A stretch of DNA of 64,000 nt from Candidatus Omnitrophota bacterium (GTDB lineage: Bacteria > Omnitrophota > Gorgyraeia > Zapsychrales > Zapsychraceae), in contig DATDQB010000020.1 of NCBI GenBank assembly GCA_035292445.1, forward strand, positions 91,484 through 155,483, in the 5' to 3' direction. The notes under the pieces were generated by a model, which worked only from the letters and a program-made list of their open reading frames with translations, did not search any database and was not told the origin of the DNA. Of the stretch, positions 2,071-49,400 are shown piece after piece. The position numbers and the translations under genes were made by a program. How positions within the stretch are numbered: position 1 is the stretch's first letter; the number at the start of each line of letters is the position of its first letter.

Positions 2071-3354
2071 TTAAATTGAGTTGGATGTTGCCATCATTTG
2101 CTTCGAATCCTGATTGATCACCATAAATTCCGGTTGAGGCACAATAAATTGCCCGCCATTGTTTAAATATTCTTGATGTTTTCTGATAATCGATTCCTGA
2201 TATCGCCATGCCAGGATCAAAACATAATCCGGATTTTTCTCATATAAAACATCTGAGCTCATTACCGGAAGATGGTGTCCCGGTGTATAAAGGTCGAACC
2301 TAGCCGGATTGTCATCAACGATAAGGCTCAGATAATCAGCTAATTCGAATAAATAAATCAGGGTCGTTACACCCACAGAGGCACCGTATCCTGCGATTGT
2401 TTTTCCTTCCGATTTAATTCTTTGACAAAGGGTCAGTAATTTTCTCTTTAATTCAAATACATCGTTAGAAAAACGTTCATAGGTCTCTCCTGAATTAATC
2501 CCATAATCCTTCTCATCATCGATCATTCGATCGACCGAAGAAGAAACCTTGTGAGCGGCATTCTTAACCCTCGCGAAACAACGCAATGAGCCTCCCTTTG
2601 AAGAAATACGCTCGACATCTGTCAATACCATCCCATAACGGTTAAACAGATTTTGCAAAGATAGCACGGTAAAATAAGATAAATGTTCATGATAGATCGT
2701 ATCGACAAGCCGATATTTTATAAGGTCCGTTCCATAGCCTGTTTCAAAAACAAAATATCCGGAAGGATCCAGTACCGTCTTTATTCCATTGATAAAGGCT
2801 CCTAAGTCATCTATATTGGCAAAAACATTATTGGCCGTGATAATTTTTGCGCAGCCGCGTTTCTGTTTTATCTTCTGTGCAAGAGAAGGTGAGAAATATT
2901 CCTGCCACGTTTCGATCCCCGCCTCTTGTGCATGCTGCGAGGCCTTAGGTGCGGGATCTATGCCCAAAACGCTCAGCCCCTGTTTCTTAAAAAACTTCAA
3001 CAAGGTGCCGTCGTTACTTCCGATATCAACAACCAATTGCCCTGCCAAAGGCTTAACCTTATTAATGACATCATCGGAATATTCTTCAAAGTGCTGAACA
3101 AGACCTTTTGAAATGGAGGTCTCATAAATATAATTGCCGTACAAAATGGTTGGATCAACGACTTCCATTAATTGAATAGCCGTGCATTGCCGACAAATAA
3201 ACAGATCAAGGGAATAAGATTCCTGCGATTTATTAAGATTATCGGCTGTGACATACGAATCCCCTACCGGGGTCGAGGGCATCTTCAGCGCACACTCGAG
3301 ATTCCGGCTGTTACAAATTCGACATGTCTTTCGTTTGATTACGCTGTGACCCAT
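2071..3354 (-). CDS. NDP-sugar C-methyltransferase, TylCIII-like architecture (N-terminal Zn ribbon, SAM methyltransferase domain, C-terminal C-methyltransferase domain)
   Basis: 427 aa. N-terminal Cys pairs CRIC...CRQC, a central class-I methyltransferase fold (VVDIGSNDG) and a C-terminal extension of family-typical length. Confidence 0.65.
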   Translation of the reverse strand: MGHSVIKRKTCRICNSRNLECALKMPSTPVGDSYVTADNLNKSQESYSLDLFICRQCTAIQLMEVVDPTILYGNYIYETSISKGLVQHFEEYSDDVINKVKPLAGQLVVDIGSNDGTLLKFFKKQGLSVLGIDPAPKASQHAQEAGIETWQEYFSPSLAQKIKQKRGCAKIITANNVFANIDDLGAFINGIKTVLDPSGYFVFETGYGTDLIKYRLVDTIYHEHLSYFTVLSLQNLFNRYGMVLTDVERISSKGGSLRCFARVKNAAHKVSSSVDRMIDDEKDYGINSGETYERFSNDVFELKRKLLTLCQRIKSEGKTIAGYGASVGVTTLIYLFELADYLSLIVDDNPARFDLYTPGHHLPVMSSDVLYEKNPDYVLILAWRYQESIIRKHQEYLNNGGQFIVPQPEFMVINQDSKQMMATSNSI

Positions 3355-8451: not shown

Positions 8452-9447
8452 TCATTGTTTGAACACCTCATATTCGGGCAGTTCCGCTATCGGTTTTTTC
8501 GATAAGCGAAGGTGCCGGATCGACTGAACAATTGCCTCCGGTGAAATCCCTAAATACTCCATCAGGCTGTCCTGCGATCCGTACCGGTCCGGAAAAACAT
8601 CCTGGATACCAATACGTTTAAATTTCTTGGGCTGTTCAAAGTTCGCCTCGGCAATTGCCTCGGCCACCGCGCTGCCGAGCCCGCCGATAACGTTGTGCTC
8701 CTCTACAGATATAATGATGGGGATGTCTTTGGCATGTTTAAGCAAGGCCTCCCTATCAAACGGTTTAACCGTATGCATATGCAGGATGGTGGCATCCAAC
8801 CCGTCTTCTTTGAGGTTCCCAACGGCTTCTAGAGCCAATCGTAAAGTGATTCCTGTCGTGATGATCAAGGCATCCCTTCCTTGGCCGCGAACGATGGCCT
8901 TCCCGATTTGGAAGGGCGCATCGTCATTGGTCACGATAGGATCAAATCCTTTGGCCAAACGGATGTAGATCGGCCCGGGATAATCAACCGTTTGCGGCAT
9001 GAGCCTGCGCATTTCATCGGCATCAGCAACCGCTACGATCGTCATATTAGGCACGGCGCGCAATATGGCAAGATCATCGATAGCCAAATGCGTCGGCCCT
9101 AATGGCGCATAAACAAGCCCGCCGCCATTGGCAATAAGGCGGACATTTGTCTTATGCAGCCCGGCATCCAGCACGATCTGTTCAAAACAGCGCCTGGATA
9201 AAAATGTTGCGATCGTGTTTGCGTAAACGATTTTTCCCTCCAAAGCCAAGCCGGCCGCTACGCTCACAAGGTTGGCTTCGCTCACGCCTTCGATGATAAA
9301 CCGTTCAGGCATTTCCTTCTTGAACTGTTTCAAGGTATCCACGCCAGGGTCCGAACCGATGAAAAATATGCGCTCATCTTGCTTGGCCAGTTGATATACC
9401 ATGTCTAAACATGTTTTACGCATGCGCGTACTCCTTGAGCCCTTCAA
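8452..9447 (-). CDS. transketolase, C-terminal section (pyrimidine-binding and C-terminal domains) of a split transketolase
   Basis: 331 aa with the typical length and conserved blocks of split-transketolase subunit B. Its start overlaps the end of the partner subunit. Confidence 0.85.
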   Translation of the reverse strand: MKGSRSTRMRKTCLDMVYQLAKQDERIFFIGSDPGVDTLKQFKKEMPERFIIEGVSEANLVSVAAGLALEGKIVYANTIATFLSRRCFEQIVLDAGLHKTNVRLIANGGGLVYAPLGPTHLAIDDLAILRAVPNMTIVAVADADEMRRLMPQTVDYPGPIYIRLAKGFDPIVTNDDAPFQIGKAIVRGQGRDALIITTGITLRLALEAVGNLKEDGLDATILHMHTVKPFDREALLKHAKDIPIIISVEEHNVIGGLGSAVAEAIAEANFEQPKKFKRIGIQDVFPDRYGSQDSLMEYLGISPEAIVQSIRHLRLSKKPIAELPEYEVFKQ

Positions 9448-10255
9448 GTAAACTTTCTATATCCTCATCTGAGATCTTGCTCTTATGGTGCCACTGCATA
9501 TTATGTTCGGCAATTCCGACGCCTTTTCCCTTAACGGTATGGCAAACAATGGCTGTGGGCTTGCCCGCTTCATAAGGCACATCTTTGAGGGCTTTCTTTA
9601 ATTGCGCCACGTTATGCCCGTCTACCTCACGAACACTAAATCCGAACGCTTTCCACTTATCGGCAAAAGGTTCCATATCCAGCACTTCAAACGTTGAGCC
9701 GTAAGACTGATGCTTGTTATAATCGACAATCACCGTCAAATTATCCAGCTTATGCTTTGCCGCACAAAGGGCCGCTTCCCAAACAGAACCTTCATTACAC
9801 TCCCCATCACCGACCACAACAAAGACACGATGATCGGCTTTCTCGAACTTGGCATTGATGGCCATGCCGACACCAATGGATAATCCATGCCCCAGGCTTC
9901 CCGTTGAGGCCTCCACCCCGGGCACTTTATGTTCCGGGTGCCCGCCCAAAATACCGTCGGACTTGCAAAACTTCCAAAGCTCTTCCTCGGCAATAAAACC
10001 TTTTTCCGCCAACAGGACATATAAAGCGATGCAGCCATGCCCTTTGCTTAAGATACACCGGTCCCTTTCCGGCCATTTCGGGTTTTTGGCATCATATTTT
10101 AAGATATCGTCATAAAGGACGCGCAAGATCTCAACGAGGGAAAATGATGCCCCCACATGCCCGCGCCGCCCGGCCTGCAATGTTTTGATGATCATCTCGC
10201 GCAGATGCTTTGAACGATCATCCAGCCCGATCTTACTGTCTTTGAAATCATTCAT
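9416..10255 (-). CDS. transketolase, N-terminal thiamine-diphosphate-binding section of a split transketolase
   Basis: GDGECNEGSVWEA ThDP-binding motif. 279 aa. Confidence 0.85.
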   Translation of the reverse strand: MNDFKDSKIGLDDRSKHLREMIIKTLQAGRRGHVGASFSLVEILRVLYDDILKYDAKNPKWPERDRCILSKGHGCIALYVLLAEKGFIAEEELWKFCKSDGILGGHPEHKVPGVEASTGSLGHGLSIGVGMAINAKFEKADHRVFVVVGDGECNEGSVWEAALCAAKHKLDNLTVIVDYNKHQSYGSTFEVLDMEPFADKWKAFGFSVREVDGHNVAQLKKALKDVPYEAGKPTAIVCHTVKGKGVGIAEHNMQWHHKSKISDEDIESLLEGLKEYAHA

Positions 10256-12058
10256 TTACGCCACCTTGACTTTGTTGAGCATATTCTTGGCTTTTTGCAA
10301 TTGCATGGCCAATACATCAAGCTTGTTAAGCTCATAAGCATTAGAAAAATGCCGGCGCTGCCACTCGCCCACAACAAATTCGTTAAGGAAGATCAAGCAC
10401 CACTTTAAGGCGAATAACGGATATAACGCATCGGCCCTCTCTTGCTGTTTCTTATCAAATTGAAAGGCCTTGGCAAACTCATCTCTAAAAGCCCGCTTTA
10501 GATCATCCTTGAGTTCCATCGCGGGATGAAGCTGAAAATCGGCGATGGTCTTGGCCGGATCATCCCAGCCGAAGTATTCAAAGTCCAAGAATATGATCCC
10601 CTTATCAGGCGTGCGCAAGGCATTATGAAAACCGAAATCCGAAGGGCTTAGCGTTCTTTCTTTATCCAGAAGAACGTTTTCCAATTTGCCCTCTAATCTT
10701 TTCGCAATGCCATCTAACAGCGGCCCAAACTCATTTTTCAAGAACTGCTGGCAATCCTTATAGATCTTTTCTTTCTCATCCGCATCATATAAACGCCCCA
10801 GCCTCATCCGAATATTGGCGATGATATCCTTGGCCGAGAAAAACGCCTCCGATGCCGGGGCGAAATGCCGGCTTTCATCTGCTGCCGTCAAATCCTTCAG
10901 CCGTTTCAAGAAACCGACGGCGAATTTGATATCTTTGGCCGCGATCGTTTCCGGATGAAACGCTTCTCCTTCGATATATTCATAAAGAGCAAACCCTTCT
11001 TTTTCATTCTTAGACAGCGGTTGCGGCACACAACCGATCCCGTTCTTCCTCAAAAAGTTCAAACCTTTATATTCGGTATTTAACCGGTCCCGCTGATCCT
11101 GAGGGTGCCGGAAATAAAACTTGGCGATATACTTTTCCTTTGCGCCTTTAAGGAAGAATACCTGGCTGTTGGCCCCGCCTTTGATCTCTGATACCTCTTG
11201 GATATCATCCGTCAATAGAGCTTGCGCCAGTTCTTTTACCTGCTTTGTGTCACGATGCCGTTCTAGCAGTGGAGCCCTATGGACAAAGCCTGTGGTAGCA
11301 TTTTGTTCTACCCTGCTTCGCTCCAATGTTTCCACGTTGGAGCTTCGCAGGGTTATCCGCCGCGAAAACATTTCGGGCTTTGCCCCTTGGCGAACATCCG
11401 CCGAAGCCCCGACAAGTTCGGGGCGAAGGCGGATAAAGATGTATTCATTGATCTCTCTCCATGAGCCCAAGACCTTGACATCAGCTAAATTCATTCCCTT
11501 GTCCAACGGTGAAAAAAGGACCTTTCGAACGCTTTTGGGAAAAGACGGTTCCATGAACGTCTCCTCCAGATCATCTACAAAATAACTGCACCCTAACGCC
11601 CGGATGCGCTCGATTTTTTCCTGCCTTGTCGATTCGAAATAAACCTGGGATGGATCTAAACCCAACCCGTTCTTCTCAAAGAAACGATTTTCCTTCATCC
11701 AAGCTAAAGCTGTCTTTTGAAGATCAATACCATCTTTATCCATCGAAGCAAATCGGGTCTTATGGCTGATGATGGCGAGCTTAATACCTTGCCTTTGACA
11801 TTGACCGAAAAACTCTGCCACGCCGTCCATCAGCTGGGCCTGTTCCATTCCCCTGCCATAAATATAGGCCTGTAACTTCTGCCACTTCGCCTCGCCATCT
11901 GGCAGTTGGCGTACCGCATCGCGTATCGCTTTTTTGTTTTGCCCCATCTTTTTGGGAATATACCCGTTGCCAAGGGCCGTGCTGTATAAAACCCTGTCAT
12001 AGCTGACGATCGTGTTATCGAAATCGACGCCAAGGATCATATGTTTACGATACTCCAC
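10256..12058 (-). CDS. bifunctional HAD-superfamily phosphatase (N-terminal) and APH/choline-kinase-like kinase (C-terminal)
   Basis: The N-terminus carries the HAD motif I GVDFDNTIV, later KLAIISHKT and YFVDDLEE. The C-terminus carries the kinase motifs DFGFHNAL and FLDFEYFGWDDP. The two domains are joined by a low-complexity linker (aa ~208-251) encoded by a short repeat. Confidence 0.65.
   Translation of the reverse strand: MEYRKHMILGVDFDNTIVSYDRVLYSTALGNGYIPKKMGQNKKAIRDAVRQLPDGEAKWQKLQAYIYGRGMEQAQLMDGVAEFFGQCQRQGIKLAIISHKTRFASMDKDGIDLQKTALAWMKENRFFEKNGLGLDPSQVYFESTRQEKIERIRALGCSYFVDDLEETFMEPSFPKSVRKVLFSPLDKGMNLADVKVLGSWREINEYIFIRLRPELVGASADVRQGAKPEMFSRRITLRSSNVETLERSRVEQNATTGFVHRAPLLERHRDTKQVKELAQALLTDDIQEVSEIKGGANSQVFFLKGAKEKYIAKFYFRHPQDQRDRLNTEYKGLNFLRKNGIGCVPQPLSKNEKEGFALYEYIEGEAFHPETIAAKDIKFAVGFLKRLKDLTAADESRHFAPASEAFFSAKDIIANIRMRLGRLYDADEKEKIYKDCQQFLKNEFGPLLDGIAKRLEGKLENVLLDKERTLSPSDFGFHNALRTPDKGIIFLDFEYFGWDDPAKTIADFQLHPAMELKDDLKRAFRDEFAKAFQFDKKQQERADALYPLFALKWCLIFLNEFVVGEWQRRHFSNAYELNKLDVLAMQLQKAKNMLNKVKVA
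11307..11435. repeat. repeat family 1, copy A (about 129 nt, inside a CDS, in frame)
   Basis: The core TACCCTGCTTCGCTCCAATGTTTCCACGTTGGAGCTTCGCAGGGTTATCCGC ... ATCCGCCGAAGC ... GCGAAGGCGGA is shared with 19334-19453. It contains the hairpin CCCTGC...GCAGGG. Confidence 0.6.
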
Positions 12059-17318: not shown

Positions 17319-19322
17319 TTAGAATTTCAAGTTCACGCCGAAATTGTAATTCTTCTTCGGAGCCGGATAAAAATCCTGTGTGTCGCTCGATTGGGACTTA
17401 ATGACCAGCGTATTGTATCTGTTGTTAAAGATATTATTTACCGCCGCGAAAACCTCTATATTTTTACTGCGAAAGGCGACCTTTCCGTCAACGACATAAT
17501 AACTTTCCGCTTTGGGCGTCTCGTTAAGGGTATCATTGATGGCAAACGTTGAGCCTATATACCTGCCGTTCAATGAGAGATTATAATGCTCTAAGAAACC
17601 AAGAATGAAGCCGTGGCTGAATTGATTATTAGGGGCCATGGGGATATCCCTGCCGTCAAAGGCGCCATCGACGAATTCAGGGTCCTGATAGGTATAATTG
17701 ACAAACGTCTCGAACTGGTCAAGAAAACCTACGTCAAAGAACTCAAGGATATCAACCCTATGCTCGGTCTCGATGCCGAGCCTCCTGGTTTCCCCATAAT
17801 TGGTGTTCTCGCCGAAGAAACCTGCCGTCGGATCAAAGAATATTTCGCTTTTAATATCGATCATATAACCCGTGAGGCTGGAAATTATCTTTTGGTCAAA
17901 ATTATGCTTTATTCCCAGTTCATATTGTTTCCCTGCCTGCTCATCGATATTGGTATTGAGCCCCGTGAATGCGCTGAACCATTCTTCCGTGGCCAGGAAA
18001 CGGAATGTCTGTTGAAAATTAAAATGGACATTGCTGCCCGGCGCATATTCATATTTCATCCCGCCCATCGCCACCGTCACTTCAGGGTCCTGTTCCTCAA
18101 AGGTTCCCGCGCTGCGATTGTCAAAAGTATATTCAGCCCGGTGATGCCTTTTGCCGGCATTAATATAAAAATTCTCGAAAGCCTCAACCTGCAGGTATCC
18201 GAAAATACCCAGCTCTTCTTTCTTGATCGTAAGATCTTCCGTTGAGAACATGCTTGTTGAATAAATATCATTTTTCGCATCTTGAAGGTCAAAGCCAACG
18301 ACAAAATCGACCTTCCGATCAAGGATCTCCCGGTCAAAGATATACTTGCCCGTGTAGGCCCTGGTTATGATATCACGATTGGTGGTAAATGAACCGGAAT
18401 CTTCCGTATTAACAATATCAAACACTTCCCGGTCCCGGTAATAAAAATCAAAAACAATATCGCCCAAATAATCGCTTTCCAACCAAGGCGTCAACTGTGT
18501 TGTTACCTGGACAAACTGGTCTTTGGTATCTGCATAATCATTCGGTGTTGCCGTGCTTTTCCGGCCGAACGTTTCGAGTTCCGATGCATTTAATCCCCCT
18601 GGCAGCTCCACGTTGTCCCGATGCTGTCCAAAAGTGACATCGAATGACACATGATCGTTAGGCTCATAGCCCATGCGGGAATTAAAGTTTCTTGTCAGCA
18701 TATCACTGTTATCGCGGTACCCACGGTCATCCAGATATTGGGAATAAAGATAATACGAAATCCCTTTTTGAGAACCGGAGAGCTCAAGATCCTCGCCTTT
18801 TCTTGAATAACTTCCATAAGTGGCCCCCAGTTTTCCGGAAAGATCCCCTTCACCCTCTTTGGTAATAATATTGATCACCCCGGCGACCGCGTTATCGCCA
18901 TAAAGAACAGAGGCTCCACCGCGTATAACCTCAATTCGTTCAACGGATCCTAAGGGGACCTGCGTAAGATCCGGCCCCGAAACATCGACGTTATTGATCT
19001 TGCGTCCGTTGACCAGAACCAACACATTCCTTCCGGCCGTATCGCCAAAACCCCGGATATCGATCGTCCTGGCCTTGTTCGTCCCGGCTTCATAAATAAA
19101 GACACCCAATACACTATAGAGAACATCCGATATGCTCTGGGCGCCGGAGGCCTCAATTCTTTCTTTGGGTATTACCGTTACGTTACCGGCAACCTCATAC
19201 TGCTCTTGCTCAAGCCGTGAGGCCGACACGACAATAGTGTCCAAATCTACGCTCAAGGCGGCATGCCCATTGCCTGTTAGAACGAATAATAACGAAAATA
19301 ATGCGCCTAAGGATCTTTTCAT
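17319..19322 (-). CDS. btuB: TonB-dependent outer-membrane receptor, cobalamin-type (BtuB-like)
   Basis: Signal peptide, a plug domain (DTIVVSASR TonB-box region) and a beta-barrel ending in a C-terminal Phe (NLKF). It is preceded by a cobalamin riboswitch. Confidence 0.8.
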   Translation of the reverse strand: MKRSLGALFSLLFVLTGNGHAALSVDLDTIVVSASRLEQEQYEVAGNVTVIPKERIEASGAQSISDVLYSVLGVFIYEAGTNKARTIDIRGFGDTAGRNVLVLVNGRKINNVDVSGPDLTQVPLGSVERIEVIRGGASVLYGDNAVAGVINIITKEGEGDLSGKLGATYGSYSRKGEDLELSGSQKGISYYLYSQYLDDRGYRDNSDMLTRNFNSRMGYEPNDHVSFDVTFGQHRDNVELPGGLNASELETFGRKSTATPNDYADTKDQFVQVTTQLTPWLESDYLGDIVFDFYYRDREVFDIVNTEDSGSFTTNRDIITRAYTGKYIFDREILDRKVDFVVGFDLQDAKNDIYSTSMFSTEDLTIKKEELGIFGYLQVEAFENFYINAGKRHHRAEYTFDNRSAGTFEEQDPEVTVAMGGMKYEYAPGSNVHFNFQQTFRFLATEEWFSAFTGLNTNIDEQAGKQYELGIKHNFDQKIISSLTGYMIDIKSEIFFDPTAGFFGENTNYGETRRLGIETEHRVDILEFFDVGFLDQFETFVNYTYQDPEFVDGAFDGRDIPMAPNNQFSHGFILGFLEHYNLSLNGRYIGSTFAINDTLNETPKAESYYVVDGKVAFRSKNIEVFAAVNNIFNNRYNTLVIKSQSSDTQDFYPAPKKNYNFGVNLKF

Positions 19323-19333
19323 TGATTCTCCAT

Positions 19334-19453
19334 TTTACCCTGCTTCGCTCCAATGTTTTCACGTTGGAGTTTCGCAGGGTTTTCCGCTGATGTGTGCTAA
19401 AATCATCAATCCGCCGAAGCTAAACGCAAAAGCAATTTAGCGAAGGCGGAAAA
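19334..19453. repeat. repeat family 1, copy B (intergenic, between the riboswitch terminator and the btuB start)
   Basis: TACCCTGCTTCGCTCCAATGTTTTCACGTTGGAGTTTCGCAGGGTTTTCCGC ... ATCCGCCGAAGC ... GCGAAGGCGGA. Identity to copy A is high over the two core blocks, with a variable centre. Confidence 0.6.
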
Positions 19454-19489
19454 TAAAAAACTCTCAACCGAAATTTCTTCGATTGAGAG
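19451..19489 (-). terminator. Rho-independent terminator (riboswitch expression platform)
   Basis: On the minus strand, CTCTCAATCGAAGAAATTTCGGTTGAGAG (7-bp stem) is followed by TTTTTTATTTT. Confidence 0.6.
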
Positions 19490-19490
19490 T

Positions 19491-19716: not shown

Positions 19717-20217
19717 TTAAAGAGCACGTGCTAAAACTTTGGCTTTCATCCGAGAAGTAATCCACTCATACGCGCCAAAGAATAGAGCCATATAAACAAA
19801 TGTGCTTAGTAGCGTCGCATCAAAAAAAGGAATGGCTAAAATAAAGCAGGTCTTCAGGCCTTCGGCGGTCAACGGATAAAGCCCACCCGTCAACCACACG
19901 CCCAGGTTGCTTACGATAAAGAATAGGATGCTGGAAGCAAGCGTTGAGGCGAGGACCATCGATAAGCTCTTTCGCTTCTTGAGCCAAATGCCGATGCCGA
20001 CGATCAGCAATATGCTTCCCCACGTAAAGAACATCGTGTTATGGAAACCAATCAAAATGTCACTGATAGCCAGTAGAACCAACGGGAGTATGATCGCCTG
20101 CTTCTTCTCGAAATAAACACCGCTGAACAAGGCTATGGCGATCACGGGGGTAAAATTGGGGATATGAACAATGGCCCTGGAAAGAACACCTAGAACAATA
20201 ATGGCTAAAGCTAGCAT
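19717..20217 (-). CDS. small polytopic membrane protein (about 5 TM), function unknown
   Basis: Hydrophobic 166-aa ORF with the motif HIPNFTPVIAIALFSG. Confidence 0.45.
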   Translation of the reverse strand: MLALAIIVLGVLSRAIVHIPNFTPVIAIALFSGVYFEKKQAIILPLVLLAISDILIGFHNTMFFTWGSILLIVGIGIWLKKRKSLSMVLASTLASSILFFIVSNLGVWLTGGLYPLTAEGLKTCFILAIPFFDATLLSTFVYMALFFGAYEWITSRMKAKVLARAL

Positions 20218-32261: not shown

Positions 32262-32894
32262 TTATTGAGACATGAGCGCTTGTTGAACGGCTTGCTGGTA
32301 TTGTTGCTGGATAGCCTGCTGTATCTGGGCCTGAATGGCCTGCTGGATTTGGGCCTGAATCGCTTGTTGTTGCTGCATGATGAGTTGCTGGGCCACCTGC
32401 TGCTGCACGGCCCGTTGGACGACGGCCCGCTGAATCGCCTGTTGCTGCGCCATGACAACCGCCCGTTGGACAATTTGTTGCTGAATAGCCCGCTGAACGG
32501 TCTGTTGAATGGCGTGCTGGACAACCGTCTGGGCGATACGCTGCTGGATGGTTTGTTGCATGGCCTGCTGGATCATCGCCTGGGCCACTTGTTGTTGGCG
32601 CTGGGCCAGCGTCTGCTGGGCTGCTTGAACATAAGCCTGTTGGATGGCCTGTTGAATAACAGCTTGCTGAAGCCCTTGCATAAGCGTCTGCTCAATAGCG
32701 GCCTCAACAATGGCCTGGTTCACGTTCAGCTGCTGTTGAATGACCGTTTGTTGCACCGCCATCGCGACCATTTGACGATAAGTGTTAATAACAATCTGCT
32801 GGATAATCGGATCAACGGTTTCCTGACCGCGGCCAATGCCGGTGGGAAGCAATAAAAAAACCAACAAAACCATGGGGATCTTATTTTTCATCAT
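32262..32894 (-). CDS. secreted Gln/Ala/Ile/Val-rich repeat protein (probable coiled-coil)
   Basis: Signal peptide MMKNKIPMVLLVFLLLPTG, then about 180 aa of AIQQ/QQAxQ repeats. GGAGAAAG RBS. The antisense Leu-rich ORF at 32265-32855 is a mirror artefact of the repetitive DNA. Confidence 0.55.
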   Translation of the reverse strand: MMKNKIPMVLLVFLLLPTGIGRGQETVDPIIQQIVINTYRQMVAMAVQQTVIQQQLNVNQAIVEAAIEQTLMQGLQQAVIQQAIQQAYVQAAQQTLAQRQQQVAQAMIQQAMQQTIQQRIAQTVVQHAIQQTVQRAIQQQIVQRAVVMAQQQAIQRAVVQRAVQQQVAQQLIMQQQQAIQAQIQQAIQAQIQQAIQQQYQQAVQQALMSQ

Positions 32895-48309: not shown

Positions 48310-49275
48310 TTATCCTCCGATCTGATACATCGCTTGCTCTATGTGATCAATGCGTGTAAAAGGCTTCATCCGTAGAACAGTCCTAAGAATTGCTGGATAT
48401 TGCTCCTTTGATATCCCTCGTAAATTAACCCCGGCTTCAGACATAATACACGCTCGTAATTTTCCAGTAGCCGTCAAACGCAAGCGGGAGCAAAAAGAAC
48501 AAAAAGATTGCGATTCGGAAGCAATGAAACCAAGCTTTGCACCTGATGGGGTTGTAAAATTAAAAGACGTGGAATCACGATTGACTGACTGTGGTAGCAA
48601 AATTTCGGATTCCTCAATTTTTTTTATAATCTCCCTGGCCGATACAAAATAAAGACTGTGATATTGAATAGAACATCCTATCTTCATTAATTCCAGAAAT
48701 CGAACCTCAATATCATGATCAGCAGAAAATTTGACAAAATCCAAAATTTCATCGTCATTGATCCCGCGCATCACAACCACGTTTACTTTTACCCGGAATC
48801 CCTCCGTCCTTGCCTGAAGAACGGCCTTGTAAACCTTATCAAAATATCTTGTCTTTGTAATCTTGTGAAATCGCTCTGCCCGAAGGCTATCCAGACTTAT
48901 ATTAATATGCTGACAACGTGTTTGTTTCAGAAAATCAAATTTCCCATCCAATAAGAAACCATTCGTCGTCAGGCCTAACTTTCCTAACGAAAGATTGGAA
49001 AGGCCTTCGATAATGGCCTCAAAATCACTTCTTAAGGTTGGCTCTCCACCCGAGACTCTGATTTCATCAATTCCAAAATCAACCAAAGCGGAGCATATTT
49101 CCAGCAACTCACCAGAGGAAAGAAGTGCCGAGGAGGGTAAAAATTCAGGCAGCAACGGCATGCAGTAAAAACAGCGGAAATTACACGCATCTGTTAACTG
49201 AACACGTAATTTATGGATCTGCCGACCATGAGCATCGACCAAAATCGACTTTGAGTCCATCTTCTTCCTTTCCAA
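48310..49275 (-). CDS. moaA: GTP 3',8-cyclase MoaA (radical SAM)
   Basis: LTDACNFRCFYCMP CxxxCxxC motif and a C-terminal second-cluster Cys. 321 aa. Confidence 0.9.
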   Translation of the reverse strand: MERKKMDSKSILVDAHGRQIHKLRVQLTDACNFRCFYCMPLLPEFLPSSALLSSGELLEICSALVDFGIDEIRVSGGEPTLRSDFEAIIEGLSNLSLGKLGLTTNGFLLDGKFDFLKQTRCQHINISLDSLRAERFHKITKTRYFDKVYKAVLQARTEGFRVKVNVVVMRGINDDEILDFVKFSADHDIEVRFLELMKIGCSIQYHSLYFVSAREIIKKIEESEILLPQSVNRDSTSFNFTTPSGAKLGFIASESQSFCSFCSRLRLTATGKLRACIMSEAGVNLRGISKEQYPAILRTVLRMKPFTRIDHIEQAMYQIGG

Positions 49276-49400
49276 ACACGGGAAGCTATATCGTTTCCAA
49301 CACAGCCGTCAGCTCCTGCTAACAGTCAGCTAACAGGAGCATCGTCCTTAAACCATGGCCGAAGCTTTAGGTTTCAAGGATTAGGGAATTTGATGATTAT

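Follow-up and report, generated by a model that had tools for sequence, protein, structure and literature searches.

Can a non-coding repeat that folds into hairpins become part of a protein that still works? This question is raised by a gene in a 64,000-nt stretch of a Candidatus Omnitrophota genome (contig DATDQB010000020.1, positions 91,484 to 155,483), which we refer to as the window. The gene encodes a HAD-type phosphatase fused to an APH-like kinase, and the original prediction noticed that the segment between the two domains is encoded by an element with a second copy 8 kb away. It offered two histories, one in which the repeat fused two formerly separate genes and one in which it entered an existing linker, and held that in either case a repeat is being translated. 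Our analysis favors the second history. Very probably, a structured repeat resembling repetitive extragenic palindromic (REP) sequences, bacterial interspersed mosaic elements (BIMEs) and REP doublets forming hairpins (REPINs), or resembling MITEs (transposable elements of the miniature inverted-repeat type), inserted in the DNA encoding the linker, where translation reads through it to give a disordered loop. The gene, the insert (copy A) and its hairpins (H0, H1 and H2) lie at the following window positions.

10256-12058, minus strand: open reading frame (ORF) P0001, the HAD-phosphatase/APH-like kinase fusion of 600 aa, documented by homologs, Pfam and identical DNA in four independent assemblies.
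11435-12058, minus strand: N-terminal HAD-fold domain, aa 1-208, from invariant motifs, an AlphaFold2 (AF2) model and Foldseek.
11270-11434, plus strand (the strand where H1 carries CTTCG): repeat copy A, the 165-nt in-frame insert, recognized by its absence from 24 homologs, its match to the related loci L006 and L010, its GC content and its predicted local distance difference test (pLDDT) score.
10256-11269, minus strand: native linker remnant (LLERHRDT…), APH/choline-kinase-like domain, aa 264-600, and stop codon, from Pfam APH, Foldseek and motifs.
11271-11297, plus strand: H0 hairpin of copy A, GGAGCCCTATGGACAAAGCCTGTGGTA, degenerate (G.T pairs and one mismatch) and absent from the second copy (copy B).
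11310-11353, plus strand: H1 hairpin of copy A, ACCCTGC-TTC-GCTCCAATGT(TTCC)ACGTTGGAGC-TTC-GCAGGGT, from its fold, covariation and a covariance model, R1 (74.2 bits).
11359-11394, plus strand: two small variable hairpins in the gap between H1 and H2, from the minimum-free-energy structure; copy B and relatives have different ones here.
11396-11434, plus strand: H2 hairpin of copy A, ATCCGCC-GAA-GCCCCGA(CAAGT)TCGGGGC-GAA-GGCGGAT, an inverted and diverged H1-type unit matched by R1 on the minus strand.

The 600-aa ORF proved to be real, and we place it on the minus strand, correcting the strand first assigned. It begins with GTG; the NCBI call is 594 aa long and carries the label 'aminoglycoside phosphotransferase family protein' from a Candidatus Omnitrophota metagenome-assembled genome (MAG). 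The N-terminal domain contains the HAD motifs DxDxT (D12/D14/T16), S98-H-K-T101, K148 and D162-D163, which are invariant in 17-20 homologs. By sequence the family match is weak (HAD_2, E=0.0036, under the cut-off), a HAD family was matched in only 3 of 17 members (two HAD_2 and one PF00702 Hydrolase), and a sequence-only PDB search with this domain gave no HAD-related match. A separate AF2 model of the domain has a pLDDT of 94.7, and its top Foldseek matches are HAD-superfamily hydrolases and deoxyribonucleotidases with TM (template modeling) scores of 0.5-0.7 (0.6-0.7 for the best). With motifs I-IV and a modeled Rossmann-like HAD fold, the domain is a predicted HAD-superfamily phosphatase. 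The C-terminal domain scores 52.3 bits against PF01636 (APH; cut-off 23.2, E=8.6e-14), and Foldseek aligns its AF2 model with YtaA, LicA, APH(9) and choline kinases at E values from 1e-12 to 1e-9. Its catalytic residues H478, N479 and D492 are invariant and the HxN…D…DDP motifs are kept; the Pfam score and the bilobal kinase fold with its HxN…D loop identify an APH/choline-kinase-like phosphotransferase. In the homolog alignment all family-invariant residues are kept in both domains, on either side of the insert. In the AF2 model of the full protein both domains have a pLDDT >90, and residues 214-266 fall below 50.

The insertion point of copy A immediately follows the final helix of the HAD domain. 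Its minus-strand reading gives the 55 residues I209-P263, IRLRPELVGASADVRQGAKPEMFSRRITLRSSNVETLERSRVEQNATTGFVHRAP. Across all 165 nt it is 83-84% identical to L006 and L010, and the relatives L006, L010 and L011 share with it the extra 5′ hairpin H0 (window 11271-11297). Because H0 is common to these relatives and because homologs show a gap of ~55 aa, we set the insert at 11270-11434. The peptide first noticed, FIRLRPELVG...SRVE, does correspond to aa 208-251, encoded by 11307-11435; the element, however, had been taken as ~129 nt long, and its true extent is 165 nt (codons 209-263). That its length is a multiple of three and its frame open holds for the corrected insert as well. The insert differs from the rest of the gene in composition, with 57% versus 46% GC, 16% versus 6% Arg and 2% versus 10% Lys. 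It would add ~55 Arg-rich residues that are probably disordered, as the structure model predicts.

Did the repeat create the fusion, or did it enter a fused gene? A homolog search returned 3,674 matches. The best 120 are mostly 479-628 aa long, and ~60 of these 120 cover at least 94% of the query; three of the 120 (P0056, P0096 and P0109) are ~855 aa long and have the HAD-kinase further fused to a transketolase N-subunit, which is the next gene in the window. We aligned 24 homologs, from Omnitrophota, Deltaproteobacteria, Verrucomicrobia, Chloroflexota, Binataceae and Woesearchaeota. The HAD-kinase fusion is present in 24/24 and the 55-residue insert in 0/24, with a gap of ~55 residues precisely at the insert position in 16 homologs. 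In longer homologs the additional residues are at other places, or the linker is extended by 0-35 aa of unrelated sequence; judging by these alignments, the linker is the length-variable and length-tolerant part of the family. Taking out the 55 codons joins …SWREINEYIF | LLERHRDTKQVKELAQALL… (…EINEYIF | LLERHRDTKQVKEL…) into a linker of homolog length, and the insert-free junction on the coding strand would read …GAATACATCTTT|CTGCTAGAACGG…. Since the fusion occurs without the insert in all 24 aligned homologs, the repeat did not create the fusion but entered an existing linker. The fusion, as dated by this comparison, is old, widespread and older than the insert. An alignment of orthologs had been suggested as the check between the two histories, and it refutes the first and supports the second. 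It had also been suggested that orthologs carrying the same linker would argue for an origin of the repeat from the gene; no aligned homolog has the insert, and the element is found in unrelated non-coding contexts of other genomes.

The second copy, copy B, lies between two genes, as the following positions show.

17319-19322, minus strand: TonB-dependent receptor gene (PF07715 Plug), whose ribosome-binding site (RBS) and ATG (19322) are 11-14 nt from copy B.
19333-19453, plus strand: repeat copy B, intergenic, comprising H1 (19337-19380), a variable hairpin (19388-19408) and H2 (19410-19450), but no H0.
19460-19490, minus strand: intrinsic terminator of the upstream gene 19717-20217 (minus); copy B is between this terminator and the TonB-receptor start.

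Placed between a terminator and the RBS and ATG of the receptor gene, copy B is therefore non-coding, which agrees with the original prediction. A repeat search aligned 11306-11360 with 19333-19387 (55 nt at 93% identity), and a 41-nt core gave two matches at ≤3 mismatches versus 0.00 expected from 100 shuffles, so the likeness is far beyond chance. The likeness does not extend over the whole element. The region of H1 (~55 nt) and the arms of H2 are shared: the 44-nt H1 reads ACCCTGC-TTC-GCTCCAA…TTGGAGC-TTC-GCAGGGT in both, and the two 11-nt H2 arms read TCCGCC-GAA-GC…GC-GAA-GGCGGA. The middle of the element and the inner H2 stem differ, yet they fold into hairpins in both copies. Both copies fold much better than shuffles: of the four strand folds, the minus strand of copy B has a z score of -4.0 and the other three have z scores of -6.6 to -7.1.

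In H1 of copy A, an outer stem of 7 bp and an inner stem of 10 bp are separated by a 3x3 TTC/TTC internal loop. The covariance model R1, made from H1 hairpins alone, gives 74.2 bits for H1 of copy A and 36.6 bits (E 5e-9) for its H2 at window 11392-11438(-). For copy B it gives 72.4 bits for H1 (+) and 45.3 bits for H2 at 19405-19455(-). R1 matches H2 on the opposite strand in every doublet, with 36-64 bits, including those at L002, L003, L005, L009, L012 and L032. Because a model of H1 only finds H2 on the opposite strand, the element is made of one imperfect-palindrome unit that occurs twice, as an inverted doublet. What makes the unit asymmetric is its 3x3 internal loop, which reads TTC/TTC on one strand but GAA/GAA on its complement. 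We rejected a K-turn reading of the GAA loops, since the loop is a symmetric 3x3.

An alignment of 17 H1 instances has 93% of its cells paired, and 8 of the 17 pairs are changed on both sides. This covariation exceeds all 500 shuffles (0/500 reach the observed value) and all slid controls, in an alignment where 22 positions are fixed by the search pattern. Columns 24/33 of alignment A4 hold a conserved T.G wobble in 13 of the 17 instances and A.G in the remaining 4, and the non-Watson-Crick cells of H1 comprise 18 G.T versus 2 A.C. There is a hint in these sequences that the CTTCG strand is the folding strand; in copy A this strand is antisense to the mRNA.

The family is spread well beyond this gene. 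With filters off, R1 finds two doublets only in the window. Two more host doublets, CTCAAA/TTTGAG variants at L032 1203-1254 and 1477-1528, were observed ~10 kb past the window end in the host contig ena:ERZ27254861:k141_2874523 (L032); the host DNA read comprises the 64 kb of the window and ~20 kb more. Scanning species-representative genomes with the H1 core gave 5 loci in other Omnitrophota or 'Planctomycetales' MAGs, and metagenomes gave 8 more contigs; the core occurs once or twice per contig in these 13 contigs. In total, the hairpin family is present on at least 15 other contigs in unrelated contexts. Units are found directly after tRNA genes (L001 and L012), directly before tRNA genes (L002 and L009), between genes (L006, L007, L010 and L011) and upstream of cspA (L003), in either orientation relative to transcription, and some are in 5′ leaders. 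In viral contigs the H1 core had 0 matches. An H2 pattern had 12 there versus 3 for a non-hairpin control, several of them in GC-rich coding DNA, and the generic pattern CTGCGAAGC…GCGAAGCAG had 96, of which most reflect a conserved phage coding stretch or are due to chance and few are real hairpins.

Units of the family are also rearranged among themselves. The H0 sequence in full-length relatives is GGAGCCCcacGGgCAAAGCCcGTGGTAcC, and the H0 hairpin (ACCACGGGCTTTGCCCGTGG) is present twice per element in L006 (336-355 and 488-507) and L010 (1176-1195 and 1329-1348). The second H0 lies inside the H2 loop, so hairpin modules can nest in one another; copy A is without the nested H0. Tandem and mosaic forms include a perfect 2 x 140-nt tandem in L009 and arrays in L005 and L012. 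At L007 two H1 copies (1891-1942 and 3150-3210) share longer flanks (…GTGAACATCGCCGCNGGGCCCCTG…GGGCTAAGCC…CGATTTCC), which by sequence indicates a subfamily with an extended outer palindrome. Both L007 copies lie where neighboring minus-strand genes leave a short gap, and mechanical ORFs extend across them.

Could the direction be reversed, with an ancestral linker from which the intergenic copy and the family derive, or with a repeat that made the fusion? One similarity could be taken that way. The right flank of copy A (11435-11462), which natively encodes SWREINEYIF, is similar to the sequence left of copy B (19308-19332, the RBS and start of the TonB receptor), AAAGATGTATTCATTGATCTCTCTCCAT versus AAGGATCTTTTCATTGAT---TCTCCAT, with 21/25 nt identical and a 3-nt gap. 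The shuffle p value is ~0.001 before correction for 12 comparisons, and the flanks are on opposite sides of the element. This likeness may be due to chance. Copy B has no H0, another middle and another H2 stem, and thus was not copied from copy A. These differences and the fused, insert-free homologs across phyla contradict both versions of a reversed history, as does the presence of the family in unrelated contexts on other contigs; we consider either version highly improbable.

Repeats are classic sites of misassembly in MAGs, and an insert of this kind could be an assembly or chimera artefact. The exact product is found on seven contigs, however, and the four that we fetched, from three ENA samples (ERZ27254861, ERZ27254865 and ERZ27254795) and one JGI sample (3300002124), are base-for-base identical across the gene and its flanks. 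With the frame and both domains continuous as well, we regard the chance of an artefact as negligible. Over 6-22 kb the four assemblies have 0-17 differences and are essentially clonal. At L027 3426-3480, one of the four assemblies, which are otherwise identical, has 5 single-nucleotide polymorphisms clustered in 55 nt of the HldE-like gene; a further 12 mismatches in the final 22 nt of that contig are probably assembly-end noise.

Is the repeat translated? We strongly infer that ribosomes would read through it. The stop-free frame can be traced codon by codon against relatives, as codon 252 (window 11301-11303) is CAA in copy A and TAA in the same frame in L006 and L010, and codon 224 (11385-11387) is CAA in copy A and TGA in L010. 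Either the inserting variant was stop-free on arrival or the stops were removed after insertion. The alternative that the gene is not expressed as one protein, being broken or silenced, or left open by chance after a recent event, draws on the very stable hairpins and on an insert that keeps a repeat-like composition, which a recent event could explain. This alternative is very unlikely, given that 337 downstream codons are open with every invariant kinase residue intact, that no terminator-like site was found inside the insert, and that the gene sits in a tight operon with its start and stop codons abutting or overlapping those of its neighbors. A frame-preserving, stop-free insert would also be let through by purifying selection. 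Read-through would produce the predicted tryptic peptides SSNVETLER, VEQNATTGFVHR and LRPELVGASADVR.

Two other readings of the coding potential of copy A were rejected. A small conserved plus-strand ORF (ATGGAGCCCC…) is interrupted by TAG in that frame in copy A. An intein or other self-removing insert, for which we expected ~130 aa or more, splicing blocks and a nucleophile at the junctions, is opposed by a length of only 55 aa, by the absence of a Cys, Ser or Thr/Asn junction pattern (I209…P263|L264), by the lack of any Pfam match in the insert and by its predicted disorder.

Across the family, element lengths of 165, 177, 196 and 197 nt have no tie to multiples of three. Six-frame translations of copy A and L010, compared with 5.8 billion proteins, returned P0001 alone. 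Because of these lengths, the in-frame stops in relatives and the single translated copy, the family does not appear to be built for coding. For the same reasons the in-frame copy is a rare survivor of a selection filter that requires the right length, no stop and a tolerant site, unlike the coding habit of Rickettsia palindromic elements (RPEs).

A translated insert could have been exapted, that is, selected as a longer or basic linker peptide or as an mRNA structure that paces translation between the two domains or determines where processing occurs. The four samples share an identical allele, TAA of L006 and L010 is CAA in copy A, the H0 of copy A is degraded, structure is very strong on both strands (~-70 kcal/mol for the mRNA), and other host doublets are in regulatory leaders beside c-di-GMP-like aptamers. 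Against this, identity among clonal assemblies is uninformative on selection, copy A is open in three of its six frames anyway, the 24 aligned homologs all do without such a segment, and the segment is predicted disordered and occurs in no other protein searched. We find exaptation unlikely, and the insert appears to be tolerated rather than selected.

The regulatory leaders just mentioned are at L032 1203-1770, ~8-9 kb past the end of the window, where two tandem units precede an NHL-repeat gene (L032 1791-3872). In each unit an H1/H2 doublet is followed by a c-di-GMP-I-like aptamer and then by a terminator. With 30.4 bits (E 6e-4), the first aptamer stays below the gathering score of 35, and the 3′ arm of H2 overlaps the 5′ part of this aptamer; the second aptamer carries an insertion.

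Several observations weigh against insertion of a mobile repeat followed by read-through as a tolerated loop. At copy A, copy B, L006, L010 and L011 a search for target-site duplications found no direct repeat of 10 nt or more on the flanks, and by-eye inspection of the junctions showed none either. No transposase or REP-associated tyrosine transposase (RAYT) was identified in the ~84 kb of host DNA that was read, and no genome-wide protein search was made. An empty-site allele or close ortholog was not found, the next-best homolog being only 41-47% identical, and therefore the direction and age of the event are not directly visible. The host copy number covers ~84 kb only, with 4 doublets, all but copy A extragenic, and the translated copy is, as far as the protein comparison extends, a one-off and not a family habit. 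The claim that a repeat is translated is a strong inference from sequence, namely from the open frame, the intact kinase residues and the identical DNA of four assemblies. Finally, fixation of the allele over four samples and the absence of the relatives' stop are also compatible with some selection.

Taken together, we propose the following mechanism. A non-coding hairpin-forming repeat would have entered DNA for the pre-existing interdomain linker of a HAD-phosphatase/APH-kinase enzyme. In the inserted repeat, one imperfect-palindrome unit would be present as an inverted doublet, with H0 ahead of it in this subfamily, and at 165 nt, stop-free in the gene frame, the repeat would let the ribosome read through. 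The linker would grow from ~10-20 to ~70 residues, the added Arg-rich 55 aa being predicted disordered. The catalytic domains would be untouched and the enzyme would most likely still work, with the insertion tolerated and neutral or nearly so. For movement, our best guess is a REP/REPIN-like route in which single-strand hairpins may be handled by a Y1 transposase, or in which recombination or tandem amplification spreads them. The lack of a target-site duplication is compatible with Y1-transposase systems that act on hairpins or single-stranded DNA. The terminal inverted repeat is weak, at ~5-8 nt (TTTAT-GGAGCC … GGCGG-ATAAA).

In-frame insertion of palindromic repeats is best known from Rickettsia, where the elements are RPEs. 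Their insertion in protein genes is covered in a part of PMC10969869 that cites Ogata (2000, 2002). Like RPEs, the element described here is a palindromic hairpin repeat of 100-170 nt that lies in frame in a conserved enzyme gene, with other copies intergenic, and it adds a peptide at a fold-compatible place, here a predicted-disordered interdomain linker. In RPE families, in contrast, the encoded peptide is conserved and dozens of insertions in ORFs are known, while here there is one genic copy with stops in relatives. In addition, RPEs are one long palindrome and the Omnitrophota element, from a different phylum, is an inverted doublet of one unit. Kinship in sequence with RPEs is not expected, and the two are set apart by encoded peptide, frame and architecture rather than by sequence comparison. 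By this analogy the event seems to work like an RPE insertion, but the element is not itself an RPE, as it lacks the conserved peptide and the recurrent genic insertion. The case would thus be the RPE phenomenon in another phylum with an undescribed repeat family, the principle itself being known.

In architecture the element is closest to REPINs and BIMEs (PMC3116915, Bertels & Rainey 2011; PMC3337134), and it has the inverted doublet that defines REPINs. The shared traits are imperfect palindromes of ~40-45 nt, loop asymmetry (GAA vs TTC) that gives orientation, inverted doublets with a spacer as well as singlets, mostly extragenic positions after genes or tRNAs, mosaic and tandem arrays (as in L009, L005 and L012), and hairpins with compensatory changes. 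Unlike in REPINs, the two units of the doublet are strongly diverged (H1 conserved and H2 variable) and the whole is not one long hairpin. There is no GTAG-type 5′ tetranucleotide as in REPs. REPINs number tens to hundreds per genome; here the copy number appears low, at 4 doublets in the ~84 kb of host DNA read and 5 and 8 contigs in the H1-core scans. REPs are extragenic by definition and practice, whereas copy A is genic. Bacterial MITEs that are sometimes inside genes (ERIC, BOX, Correia and QMITE; PMC10969869) are likewise small, non-autonomous, structured and atypical in AT/GC, and they are occasionally read through as in-frame fusions (PMC10969869), as copy A would be. The element differs from classic MITEs, which have terminal inverted repeats and a fixed-length target-site duplication. 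Its terminal inverted repeat is weak, the five junctions inspected are without a duplication, other loci have repeats of 13-22 nt instead, and no parent insertion sequence (IS) is known.

Two further likenesses were weighed. The sequence d(GCGAAGC) forms an extraordinarily stable DNA mini-hairpin (PMC13037366), and GCGAAGC is present on both arms of the GAA strand in H1 and several H2; so far this is a coincidence of sequence, and the GAA triplets are better explained as the symmetric 3x3 internal loop. In Rfam 15 no family reached its gathering score for both copies and 8 related loci, with sub-threshold matches at chance level only. One of these, to RT-18 RNA (RF03021), covers window 11381-11440 (+), that is, a small GCC-CCUU-GGC hairpin and H2. 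It reflects GCC-CUU-GGC with a GCCGAA stem, at 24.5 bits and E 0.02 against a gathering score of 41.3. Its Shine-Dalgarno end is unmatched and relatives do not reproduce it at E<0.5, and we judged it, like the miRNA and snoRNA matches, to be chance. A literature search for palindromic repeats in Omnitrophota found nothing relevant.

The bracketing of doublets at several loci raises a further possibility. At L002 1482-1635 the doublet is bracketed by a direct repeat equal to tRNA-Leu nt 1-13, and at L009 673-970 by an 18-nt tRNA-Leu-like 5′ fragment. At L012 6792-7072 the bracketing repeats are the last 13 nt of tRNA-Met and a 22-nt repeat, and at L005 7068-7236 a direct repeat of 15 nt. The tRNA-Leu 5′ end GCCGAAGTGGCGGAAT also resembles the H2 3′ arm GCGAAGGCGGA(A/T)AA. 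Direct repeats of 13-22 nt are too long and variable for a classic target-site duplication and look more like microhomology, tandem amplification or BIME-type linkers. Because copies are placed exactly at tRNA ends and in riboswitch leaders, and are flanked by such repeats, the H1/H2 units could be an undescribed structured-element family across many Omnitrophota-type MAGs with its own function or a dedicated mobilization route. Its features would be the inverted hairpin doublets, the conserved 3x3 GAA/GAA loop, the conserved T.G wobble and the strand-biased G.T pairs. We put this forward tentatively, as rather unlikely. The repeats fit poorly with classic MITE or IS200-type insertion and hint at microhomology integration, target-primed copying, or a processing or termination module.

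Around the gene is a sugar-nucleotide cluster of a GmhA-like SIS protein, an HldE-like kinase/adenylyltransferase, epimerases, transketolase N and C subunits, methyltransferases and DegT, which from its gene content looks like a heptose or sugar-nucleotide modification operon. The transketolase N-terminal subunit gene (9416-10255) directly abuts the HAD-kinase, whose stop ends at 10256, with its ATG at 10255. Elsewhere in the window, a molybdenum cofactor (Moco)/tungsten riboswitch at 49251-49398 (-) scores 54.2 bits, above the Rfam gathering score, and is the sole gathering-level match in the window; the genes called in the same part of the host contig include one for a molybdopterin oxidoreductase. 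Short tandem-like direct repeats TGGATAGCCTGCTG… (families D1 and D2) at 32284-32681 are probably within the coding region of a low-complexity repeat protein.

For annotation, the insert explains a protein ~50 aa longer than its family. The hairpin repeats are an uncatalogued family in a poorly studied phylum, near tRNAs and riboswitch leaders, and may confound the prediction of non-coding RNAs and genes in MAGs. If the family does have its own function or mobilization route, the in-frame copy would be a window on modules that seed new protein sequence. More broadly, the gene offers a clean, independently assembled case, beyond Rickettsia, in which selfish or structural repeat DNA turns into protein sequence, in an interdomain linker, the place where protein architecture best tolerates new residues. 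It favors the idea of palindromic repeats as a source, rare but general, from which linkers and loops are expanded.

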